Sequence record: OK322699.1
Direction: 5' to 3' (one strand)
Source of the DNA: Escherichia phage Sa157lw
Length of the DNA stretch: 64,000 nucleotides
Every line of letters begins with the position of its first letter. Positions within the stretch are counted from its first letter, which is position 1. This document shows, piece after piece, positions 57,509 through 57,774 of this stretch. The position numbers and the translations under genes are program-made. The notes below the pieces were generated by a model that did not search any database, was not told the origin of the DNA, and saw only the letters and a program-made list of their open reading frames with translations.

Positions 57509-57594
57509 TTGCTTCAACTGGATTCGAACCAGTGACCTCAGGCACCTTGTTCTCTCGAAACTTTCCTGCGCTCTACCACTCGAGCTATGAAGCA
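57509..57594 (-). ncRNA. tRNA-like RNA with aberrant anticodon domain
   Basis: Acceptor TGCTTCA/TGAAGCA, D-arm GCTC-GAGTGGTA-GAGC, T-arm ACTGG-TTCGAAT-CCAGT, but no 5-bp anticodon stem in the 36-nt central segment. Confidence 0.3.
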
Positions 57595-57597
57595 ATT

Positions 57598-57686
57598 TGG
57601 CGGAAGGTGAAGGATTCGAACCTTCGGGGGCTAAAAGCCCCACTCGATTAGCAGTCGAGTCCCTTAAACCTCTCGGGCAACCTTCC
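57598..57686 (-). tRNA. tRNA-Ser (anticodon GCU), type II
   Basis: Hand-folded cloverleaf: acceptor GGAAGGT/ACCTTCC, anticodon arm CTCGA-CTGCTAA-TCGAG, 17-nt variable arm, T-arm GAAGG-TTCGAAT-CCTTC, encoded CCA. Confidence 0.8.
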
Positions 57687-57690
57687 AATT

Positions 57691-57774
57691 TGGAGCGGGA
57701 GAACAGGATTCGAACCTGTCCAGTGATCGTCGCCGATGATCAGTCGGCTACTGGCCAACCCCTATGGCTCCCGC
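57691..57774 (-). tRNA. tRNA-like gene, possibly tRNA-Ile (GAU), non-canonical
   Basis: Acceptor GCGGGAG/CTCCCGC, T-arm ACAGG-TTCGAAT-CCTGT, anticodon arm GCCGA-CTGATCA-TCGGC; irregular D-arm and one extra nt before the acceptor. Confidence 0.4.

Follow-up and report, generated by a model that had tools for sequence, protein, structure and literature searches.

The window analysed here, the whole stretch of 64,000 nucleotides (nt) from Escherichia phage Sa157lw (sequence record OK322699.1), belonged to a Kuttervirus (Ackermannviridae, Vi01/CBA120-like) and carried on its minus strand an RNA operon of about 1.5-2 kb with a single small open reading frame (ORF). Two elements resembling transfer RNAs (tRNAs) in this operon, element 1 (57509-57594) and element 2 (57691-57774), flanked a canonical tRNA-Ser(GCU) (57598-57686) that was called by ARAGORN, scored 56 bits with Rfam and was identical in Agtrevirus. 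The operon ran from a tRNA with a CAU anticodon through an ORF of 65-74 amino acids, tRNA-Asn, about 465 nt of structured RNA (units A and B), element 2, tRNA-Ser, element 1 and unit C to a terminator. The region was 98% identical to that of Salmonella phage vB_Hercules_SET and 92-97% identical to those of ECML-4, SJ2, PhaxI, SFP10 and other Kutterviruses. As an initial annotation of the two elements had described, both lay within 3-4 nt of tRNA-Ser: a 3-nt spacer AAU (57595-57597) led to element 1 on the downstream side, and a 4-nt spacer AAUU (57687-57690) followed element 2, which stood upstream and ended in an encoded CCA at 57691. The good acceptor and T arms ascribed to the two elements were likewise found, as 7-base-pair (bp) acceptors and 5-bp T stems.

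Element 1 joined an intact tRNA body to a central segment that was not an anticodon arm. The body comprised the 7-bp acceptor UGCUUCA/UGAAGCA, a D arm (GCUC-GAGUGGUA-GAGC) with G18 and G19, and a T arm (ACUGG-UUCGAAU-CCAGU) with a 5-bp stem and a UUCRANY loop, all as in a canonical tRNA. Exactly 36 nt separated the D stem from the T stem (G26, a 30-nt arm and a 5-nt variable loop), and this segment held a 4-bp stem only, in agreement with the earlier remark that a 5-bp anticodon stem was missing. The 7-nt anticodon loop was absent too, and the arm did not conform to an anticodon arm as defined by a 5-bp stem, a 7-nt loop, U33, an anticodon and a purine at position 37. A 7-nt loop having U33 and a purine at position 37 could not be placed anywhere in it, so that element 1 cannot decode.

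Covariance-model scoring, which the initial annotation had proposed as a check, bore out the tRNA character of element 1 and placed element 2 below the tRNA threshold. Under permissive filters element 1 reached 48.7 bits with the Rfam tRNA model (RF00005; E = 6e-9, gathering threshold 29 bits), far beyond random expectation, while the default gathering run omitted it. To reach this score the alignment had to take 22 nt as inserted sequence, against an expected 9 or so. ARAGORN made no call for element 1 in the window and returned 'tRNA-???' for the Agtrevirus counterpart; RNAfold gave a cloverleaf with a long arm. The encoded 3' end was UCA in the window, CCA in Hercules_SET and several other Kutterviruses, ACA in one Agtrevirus and CUC in pSb-1. 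As a 3' CCA was not conserved, a conserved need for aminoacylation is unlikely, and charging of element 1 is probably unneeded. GenBank records of relatives labelled the element tRNA-OTHER, Undet(nnn) or pseudo, with a pseudogene flag in SFP10.

The 30-nt arm (57539-57568), hereafter the cassette, occurred at the same position in three tRNA-like bodies. It read CAGG AAA G U UUC GAGA GAA C AAGGUG CCUG in the window and was laid out as a 4-bp basal stem, a 3x6 internal loop, a bulged pyrimidine, a 4-bp upper stem and a tetraloop (57553-57556). At the position of element 1, phage ECML-4 carried a gene with the same acceptor and T arms and nearly the same D arm, with a normal tRNA-Ile(GAU) anticodon arm called by ARAGORN; the alignment of the two differed in exactly positions 27-43, which spanned 17 nt in ECML-4 versus 30 nt in the window. 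Phage IME11 likewise bore a normal anticodon arm on a body of the type found in pSb-1. Because these sister genes have normal arms on the same bodies, exactly the arm, positions 27-43, was exchanged, and the alignments indicate that the arm of element 1 is an exchanged part, not a degraded one.

BLAST with element 1 retrieved 141 phage records (133 at 80% coverage or more), including the N4-like Gamaleyaviruses pSb-1 and HK2. The acceptor of pSb-1 (Schitoviridae) was entirely different from that of element 1 and the arm was the same. The cassette was carried on body (i), UGCUUCA/UGAAGCA, by Kuttervirus, Agtrevirus and a 72-kb N4-like contig, and on body (ii), GCCCACU/AGUGGGU, by Gamaleyavirus pSb-1 and metagenomic contigs of 73 kb and 1.6 kb. 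On body (iii) it was found in coliphage HK620, in Klebsiella phages SopranoGao, ZCKP8, ZCKp20p and RCIP0093, and, by BLAST, in prophages of 97 of 5426 complete E. coli genomes; no listed E. coli match covering most of this form had an annotation there. The Agtrevirus form, the 72-kb contig and body (iii) first came from pattern scans of IMG/VR and metagenomes, the BLAST search with body (iii) being independent of the search patterns. The carriers infect Escherichia, Salmonella, Shigella and Klebsiella and belong to unrelated families without a common neighbouring gene, with settings as different as the Kuttervirus tRNA operon, the interval between qut and the late terminator in HK620, and a site adjoining two tRNAs in ZCKP8.

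Variation within the cassette was confined to few positions. The consensus CAGG-ARA-G-Y-UUC-GNRA-GAA-C-AAGGUG-YCUG (30 nt, closed by CAGG/YCUG) varied at the preceding base, the middle base of the 5' internal-loop strand (A/G/U), the bulge (U/C), the two middle tetraloop bases and one basal-stem G-C, which became G-U. The tetraloops were solely GAGA, GAAA, GGAA and GGGA. Two alleles, AAA with GAGA and AGA with G[AG][AG]A, each occurred on more than one body, which implies that the cassette was swapped between bodies several times. Between the window and Agtrevirus pSal-SNUABM-02, whose tRNA-Ser was identical, element 1 differed by eight substitutions; all were at unpaired positions, which points to a constrained structured RNA, not a pseudogene.

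Body (iii), hereafter the third body, was a widespread tRNA-like RNA with exchangeable inserts. It was built of the acceptor strand UGUGGUG, AA, a D arm (GCGC-AGGCUGAU-GCGC), the insert, a T arm (GCCGG-AGAUCAGCA-CCGGC) and CACCACA, and its cassette-bearing forms had closing stems such as GUUGUGGUG/CACCACAAC or GAUUGGAUG/CAUCCAAUC. Examples lay in HK620 at 16082-16192 (locus L037, 1501-1611), in L038 (1501-1608), in IME11 (L039, 1501-1650) and in L040 (1501-1604), with further ones in L041-L159 and L167-L246. A 20-base pattern of the D arm gave at least 120 matches in IMG/VR and at least 120 in bacterial species genomes, a few of which were not the third body (one in a large ORF, one a CRISPR spacer). 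Among the matches listed, the taxa were Enterobacterales, Burkholderiales, Pseudomonas, Xanthomonadales, Alphaproteobacteria and some metagenome-assembled genomes of other phyla. Where its location was examined, the third body stood upstream of a holin gene in prophage late leaders, in HK620 and an E. coli prophage also downstream of the antiterminator gene Q; it occurred in lytic phages of several families as well. It was not in Rfam 15, and no paper describing it was found.

The fold of the third body was supported by covariation. With the insert removed, 39 distinct scaffolds paired in 97.9% of cells, a value that dropped to 27-57% when the partners were slid. Double-sided changes occurred at seven pairs (four in the acceptor, three in the T stem), and the covariation score was reached by 0 of 500 shuffles. 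The D loop GCUGA and the T loop UCAGC could form a 5-bp kissing contact, one without covariation support because the search pattern fixed one side.

At least 77 unrelated inserts of 32-166 nt occupied the anticodon-arm position of the third body. The 77 dereplicated inserts shared no k-mer motif and showed no excess complementarity to their own flanks (7.4 versus 7.0-7.2 nt). Among the IMG/VR matches listed, the cassette of element 1 was the insert in 7 of 120 third-body instances. One insert class (L129, L139, L159) was a sense-strand copy of E. coli 16S ribosomal RNA (rRNA) nt ~243-283, which we take to be helix 11, with 34-36 of 40 bases identical (z = 9-14 versus shuffles) and a compensatory change from UAGGUG/CACCUA to AUGGUG/CACCAU. 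As far as sequence comparison can tell, these third-body RNAs show that phages in general make a practice of mounting putatively functional hairpins on tRNA bodies.

Frames resembling the ssrA tag were found 195-420 nt (typically about 200 nt) upstream of the third body in 17 of 128 loci. Examples were ANEEMYLAVA*, ANDDVVLMAA*, ANDNTFLAVA*, ANDEQFLAVA* and ANDDLMLMAA*, and the loci included HK620 (L037, ~1299-1331), L038 (1324), IME11 (L039, 1319), L040, L165 and 12 others. Their context aligned with the resume region of E. coli transfer-messenger RNA (tmRNA). ARAGORN found no tmRNA at these loci, and Rfam returned only tmRNA_permuted, at 33 bits, in IME11. A published tmRNA survey has no enterobacterial phage among the phages with ssrA (PMC4131195).

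These results can be read together, with somewhat more confidence than doubt, as a non-decoding carrier RNA of tRNA shape in element 1 beside a tRNA-derived gene in decay in element 2. Element 1 is probably a working non-coding RNA. The odd arm is its most conserved part and recurs on three unrelated bodies, which argues that the element is not a decaying pseudogene, and the comparison of bodies showed the arm, not the body, to be the conserved and therefore presumably functional part. The initial annotation had offered an unusual functional tRNA, a pseudo-tRNA or a processing signal for each element; derivation from tRNA and a tightly packed precursor held for both and pseudo-tRNA suits element 2, whereas element 1, with no anticodon loop and a conserved arm, fits none of the three well.

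In the proposed mechanism, element 1 would be transcribed within the polycistronic tRNA precursor of the phage and released in the manner of a tRNA, with RNase P cutting the 5' end and exonucleases trimming the 3-4 nt spacers; such processing is suggested because the acceptor, T-arm and elbow elements are intact and the CCA-AAUU junctions conserved. The product would fold into an L shape and display, in place of the anticodon arm, a 30-nt irregular hairpin with a purine-rich asymmetric internal loop (ARA/AAGGUG) and a GNRA-type tetraloop. This arm may bind sequence-specifically, for example as a decoy or sponge, a factor that enterobacterial hosts have in common; carriers that are unrelated and share no neighbour point either to such a host factor, shared by Enterobacteriaceae, or to an RNA acting alone. 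The tRNA body would provide processing and stability, as it does in engineered 'tRNA scaffolds', and it is this match in design that leads us to read element 1 as a tRNA-processed carrier with a binding hairpin.

A broader proposal, which we put forward tentatively and with more reserve, is that phages have a class of 'cargo tRNAs', so far undescribed, which bear an exchangeable effector cassette as their anticodon arm and are represented in Kuttervirus by element 1. Ackermannviridae, Schitoviridae, P22-like and Klebsiella phages would then have at least three bodies among which the same cassette was passed, and one carrier type, in prophage late leaders across Proteobacteria, would display at least 77 unrelated cassettes. 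Phages would thereby use the tRNA maturation of the host to deploy decoy or regulatory hairpins against host factors, possibly components of translation or defence.

Several observations weigh against a carrier function of element 1. The cassette arm was thermodynamically weak (-3.9 kcal/mol, z = +0.3) and showed no double-sided covariation, so that its fold is a model. The restriction to GNRA tetraloops amounted to A/G transitions at two positions, and a c(UUCG)g reading fitted two of the four tetraloop variants. Phages ECML-4, STML-13-1 and UTK0004 carried a tRNA-Ile instead of the cassette gene (read from the sequence in ECML-4 and from the annotation in UTK0004, STML-13-1 matching in the 3' part only); with a tRNA-Ile in its place in a few Kutterviruses, the cassette is not essential. 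Part of the apparent invariance of the cassette was imposed by the search patterns, although pattern-free BLAST and scaffold-based retrievals gave the same picture, and the near-identity between phage families could come from recent horizontal spread, not from long purifying selection. Searches for an origin or a target were negative as well: GGANAGNTTCGANAGAACAAGGTG had no match in 185,579 bacterial species genomes that would indicate a host origin, the rest of the 64-kb window matched the cassette over 10 nt or more in neither sense nor antisense orientation, and the best local alignments with E. coli 16S, 23S and 5S rRNA were not significant (z = 2.3-2.9).

Candidate identities of the arm were also considered and set aside. 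Mimicry of 23S helix 62 by the GGGA variant came down to an 11-nt match (CUUCGGGAGAA, p ~0.1). A kink-turn, tried by hand, fitted in neither orientation, and likeness to the sarcin-ricin loop consisted of C-GAGA-G and a loose AGU/GAA that the GAAA, GGAA and GGGA variants break. A link to Shiga toxin was dropped, the examined prophage locus having Q, holin and endolysin genes and no stx. Looser pattern matches (L017-L022) were chance matches within coding sequence. Rfam run permissively with all families on the operon and five related loci matched the elements to tRNA alone, and full-text searches of the literature, whether with the sequences of cassette and scaffold or on tRNA-like decoys of phages, gave nothing relevant. 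The CAGGA.AG and ACAAGGU motifs presumably resemble the repeats of CsrB, which would make CsrA a conceivable ligand.

Other explanations of element 1 have to be weighed against the carrier reading. The packing of the units 3-4 nt apart and the repeated CCA-AAUU junction would also follow if both elements were non-functional pseudo-tRNAs whose acceptor/T minihelices were kept, like the processing signals of the initial annotation, as RNase P punctuation of a long non-coding precursor, and the damage clearly tolerated by element 2, the pseudogene flag in SFP10 and the judgement of the CBA120 authors, who took element 1 as degenerate, agree with this. Punctuation needs acceptor and T arms alone, however; it leaves the best-conserved part, the 30-nt arm, unexplained, as it does the recurrence of that arm on three unrelated bodies, including the single-copy HK620 late leader without a neighbouring tRNA, and we consider it unlikely. 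Even less probable, in our view, is that the cassette arrived by selfish insertion or by recombination, as a mobile mini-element, homing footprint or recombined patch, with no RNA function of its own and a conservation that would reflect recent spread. Near-identity in unrelated phages, two alleles each on several bodies, a homing endonuclease gene adjoining the tRNA cluster in relatives and the at least 77 unrelated inserts taken up at one site of the third body are all as such an insertion would have them. Yet the anticodon arm was precisely replaced, not inserted into, a target-site duplication was absent, variation respected the predicted pairing, and no enzyme gene was common to the different phage families.

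An action on the ribosome or on ribosome rescue, with element 1 not a generic scaffolded decoy but, for example, one that imitates a tRNA towards SmpB/tmRNA or empty A sites, draws on the tag-like frames upstream of the third body (HK620, ZCKP8, an E. coli prophage and others), on the third-body insert that mimics 16S helix 11, and on mycobacteriophage DS6A, in which an RNA consisting of the tRNA-like domain (TLD) only is thought to titrate SmpB (PMC4131195). The frames were present in only 13% of loci, where ARAGORN sees no tmRNA, and the acceptor stems lacked G3-U70 and varied freely. The Kuttervirus operon itself was without such a frame, none being found between 57000 and 59500, and this action appears improbable. 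A tmRNA proper, standard or permuted, was rejected: ARAGORN found none in the window, and Rfam gave only a 17-nt T-arm match (E = 1.3). It is hardly credible that element 1 is a real tRNA that decodes despite its 13 extra nt, whether these form an intron, are lost in some other way or are simply tolerated. The Rfam tRNA model does accept the element with 22 nt skipped, and the sister gene of ECML-4 is a tRNA-Ile; but the 20 nt between A31 and G39 have no place for a 7-nt loop of the form U33-NNN-R37, the 31-39 pair would be A-G, and all 30 nt are conserved on bodies of different identity, which is not the pattern of a variable intron and an anticodon. An intron-containing tRNA was thus rejected, as an anticodon loop is not recoverable from element 1.

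The carrier reading of element 1 has parallels among known RNAs. The bacterial Y RNA YrlA is a non-decoding RNA of tRNA shape that acts by being bound, and the stable RNAs 'species 1 and 2' (rnaC, rnaD) of phage T4, which belongs to a different phage family than the window phage, are small RNAs of unknown function that are co-transcribed and co-processed with phage tRNAs. The TLD of tmRNA, the TLD-only RNA of DS6A and tRNA-Other of Bacillus cereus, which is reported to be a pseudo-tRNA with a regulatory phenotype (PMC3399842), are, like element 1, tRNA-shaped and do not read codons, and they act by being bound, as is proposed for element 1. The tmRNA TLD lacks both the full D arm and the long structured arm of element 1; element 1 has no G3-U70, and neither ARAGORN nor Rfam assigned it to tmRNA or another non-tRNA family above threshold. 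No sequence relationship links it to the tmRNA TLD, the TLD-only RNA of DS6A, YrlA or B. cereus tRNA-Other, and it is a member of none of these families.

The closest architecture was that of engineered tRNA scaffolds: a hairpin takes the place of the anticodon stem-loop, and the tRNA-processing machinery of E. coli recognises the chimeras, which accumulate stably (PMC3753655). Element 1 and the third body share this design, as developed by Ponchon and Dardel, with acceptor, D and T arms kept and the arm replaced. By comparison with its sister tRNA-Ile genes, element 1 has exactly the arm replaced, by a closed hairpin insert, a likeness in how the two would work and not membership of a curated family. 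The engineered scaffolds are laboratory constructs, whereas element 1 is natural and phage-encoded, with one insert conserved across phage families.

Element 2 differed from element 1 in most of these respects and is most likely, judging by its sequence, a decaying tRNA-derived gene. Its acceptor GCGGGAG/CUCCCGC was followed by U73 and CCA, an end (G1-C72, C2-G71, G3-C70, U73, CCA) that we take to resemble that of E. coli tRNA-Gly. The irregular D arm, pyrimidine 37 and extra nucleotide of the initial annotation were all recovered: a regular D stem was absent, the loop at the anticodon position (CUGAUCA) placed C at position 37, and one extra U stood between the T arm (ACAGG-UUCGAAU-CCUGU) and the acceptor 3' strand. 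ARAGORN called the element tRNA-Ile(GAU). On Rfam the tRNA model did not reach its threshold, and the best match was tRNA-Sec with 23.2 bits against a cut-off of 47. The minimum-energy fold was not a cloverleaf.

BLAST with element 2 found 72 phage records; about 45 held full copies, all of them Kuttervirus or Agtrevirus, and GenBank labelled the element tRNA-Ile or nothing in relatives. Among five sequence variants, a T-stem A-U had become A-C in three, G7 was lost in one and two G-C pairs had become G-U; changes in the D region restored no pairing. At least 27 records (SFP10, Det7, GG32, FEC14 and others) matched the 5' half only. In SFP10, the only such record read, an internal deletion of about 37 nt ran from the anticodon loop to the acceptor 3' strand and removed the T arm. 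ECML-4 and PhaxI had unrelated sequence at the position.

A functional but unusual tRNA, which would either decode as Ile(GAU) and have a long variable region or be akin to tRNA-Sec or allo-tRNA, is an unlikely though not far-fetched alternative for element 2. The ARAGORN call, the perfect T loop, the encoded CCA and the 5-bp anticodon stem with U33 favour it, together with 95-100% identity in about 45 Kuttervirus and Agtrevirus records. Irregular 8/4 and 9/3 species of the allo-tRNA/tRNA-Sec type are known from phage tRNA clusters (PMC5389517), and element 2 is like them in its long anticodon-to-T region and in the extra nucleotides at the acceptor/T junction. It differs from them in lacking both a 6-bp D stem with a tetraloop and a variable-arm helix, a D stem of the tRNA-Sec type having two to three mismatches in six pairs. 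The 8/5, 9/4, 8/4 and 9/3 arrangements have a 12-13 bp acceptor/T branch with a lengthened acceptor and a long, paired variable arm; element 2 fitted none of them, its candidate acceptor pairs 8 and 9 both being C-U. Sub-threshold scores for tRNA and tRNA-Sec, C37, the A-C pairs and lost G7 of the variants, the non-cloverleaf fold, and internal deletion in at least 27 records with absence from others also speak against a functional tRNA. With element 2 as a gene in decay, its GAU 'anticodon' would be accidental, and the element may still be cut from the precursor although the phage does not need it.

Both elements had been noticed in 2011, and element 1 was published as 'degenerate' by the CBA120 authors; the observation itself is not new but was never explained. 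What is new, as far as the compared genomes indicate, is that a gene taken for a 'degenerate tRNA' has been recognised as the carrier of a conserved cassette that different phage families have in common. Labels such as 'degenerate' or 'undetermined' tRNA are routine for such genes in papers on phage genomes, which take them no further. If the arm does work as a module, well-studied therapeutic and model phages such as CBA120, Vi01, SFP10 and HK620 contain a common but overlooked class of non-coding RNA, and nature uses the tRNA-scaffold trick devised by RNA engineers in 2007. It would also offer a direct route to the host factor targeted by these phages, a question made testable by the conserved 30-nt arm.

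The remaining units of the operon were on the minus strand as well. A canonical tRNA with a CAU anticodon (58645-58720) was found by Rfam and by ARAGORN, which called it Met; we take it to be nearly identical to E. coli ileX (tRNA-Ile2, CAU modified to lysidine), so that it may read AUA, not AUG. The tRNA-Asn(GUU) (58250-58325) was canonical with both programs. Units A and B, the structured non-coding RNA between tRNA-Asn and element 2 (57781-58245), had no ORF and no Rfam match and formed two sub-units with CCA ends at 57997-57999 and 57781-57783. A long hairpin at 57997-58071 showed compensatory changes in PhaxI and SFP10 (GCCGCUGCG/CGUAGCGGU versus ACCACCGCG/CGUGGUGGU), and in ECML-4 and P46FS4 a tRNA-Tyr(GUA) was inserted precisely at the CCAAA junction (57997). 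Four of the 15 CCAAATT heptamers of the window lay within 660 nt of the minus strand, each at the 3' end of a unit, and the operon units appear, from their sequences, to have been shuffled at CCA-AAU(U) junctions.

Unit C (57345-57498), the last RNA of the operon, was read from the sequence and was conserved in Ackermannviridae. An acceptor (GAGUGUG/CGCACUC) and a T arm (UCGGG-UUCGAUU-CCCGA) enclosed about 110 nt, and a D arm was absent. The Agtrevirus acceptor showed compensatory changes (GGGCGUG/CGCGCUC). Unit C was found in 233 Ackermannviridae records down to 75% identity, Taipeivirus included, and was annotated in none of them. It resembled the tmRNA TLD, yet without a tag frame. An intrinsic terminator (57263-57285; a 9-pair stem and a U tract) closed the operon, followed downstream by the ribosome binding site and ATG of the next gene; no sigma-70 consensus promoter was found for the operon. 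In SFP10, an extra unit of about 140 nt that is not present in the window followed tRNA-Asn (locus L162, 300-440), with an acceptor GUCGGGU/GCCCGAC, a T arm GGGG-UUUGAAU-CCCC, a long insert and no D arm.

Minor observations concerned the third body and the N4-like phages. In Halomonas olivaria (AP019416.1, L195), the match to the scaffold pattern was a CRISPR spacer (GGAGTGAATGCGCAGGCTGATGCGCACGTAGCGA) between type I-E-like repeats, which indicates that a host acquired immunity against a conserved phage element. A conserved 5' leader of the third body, AGUGCUCUUUCC (L037, 1499-1512; L039, 1501-1512), had a second copy upstream of the tag frame in HK620 and IME11 and presumably resembles the boxA antitermination element UGCUCUUU. 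The prophage small RNA STnc100 gave matches below its cut-off of 47 bits in Taipeivirus (39.6 bits; L038, 2957-3088) and pSb-1 (26.3 bits; L004, 3474-3563), both downstream of tRNA-like elements. The pSb-1 record annotates ORF gp97 across the homologue of element 1, and a gene-free stretch of about 1.1 kb in this phage (L004, 1440-2600) held at least four T-arm-like GGUUCGAWUCC motifs with matching acceptor strands, in which ARAGORN found no tRNA. In IME11, a canonical tRNA with the body of the pSb-1 homologue (L039, 2187-2262) had the anticodon AAU, an unmodified A34 being unusual for an Ile anticodon in bacteria, and adjoined a 'tRNA-???' call at 2105-2180.

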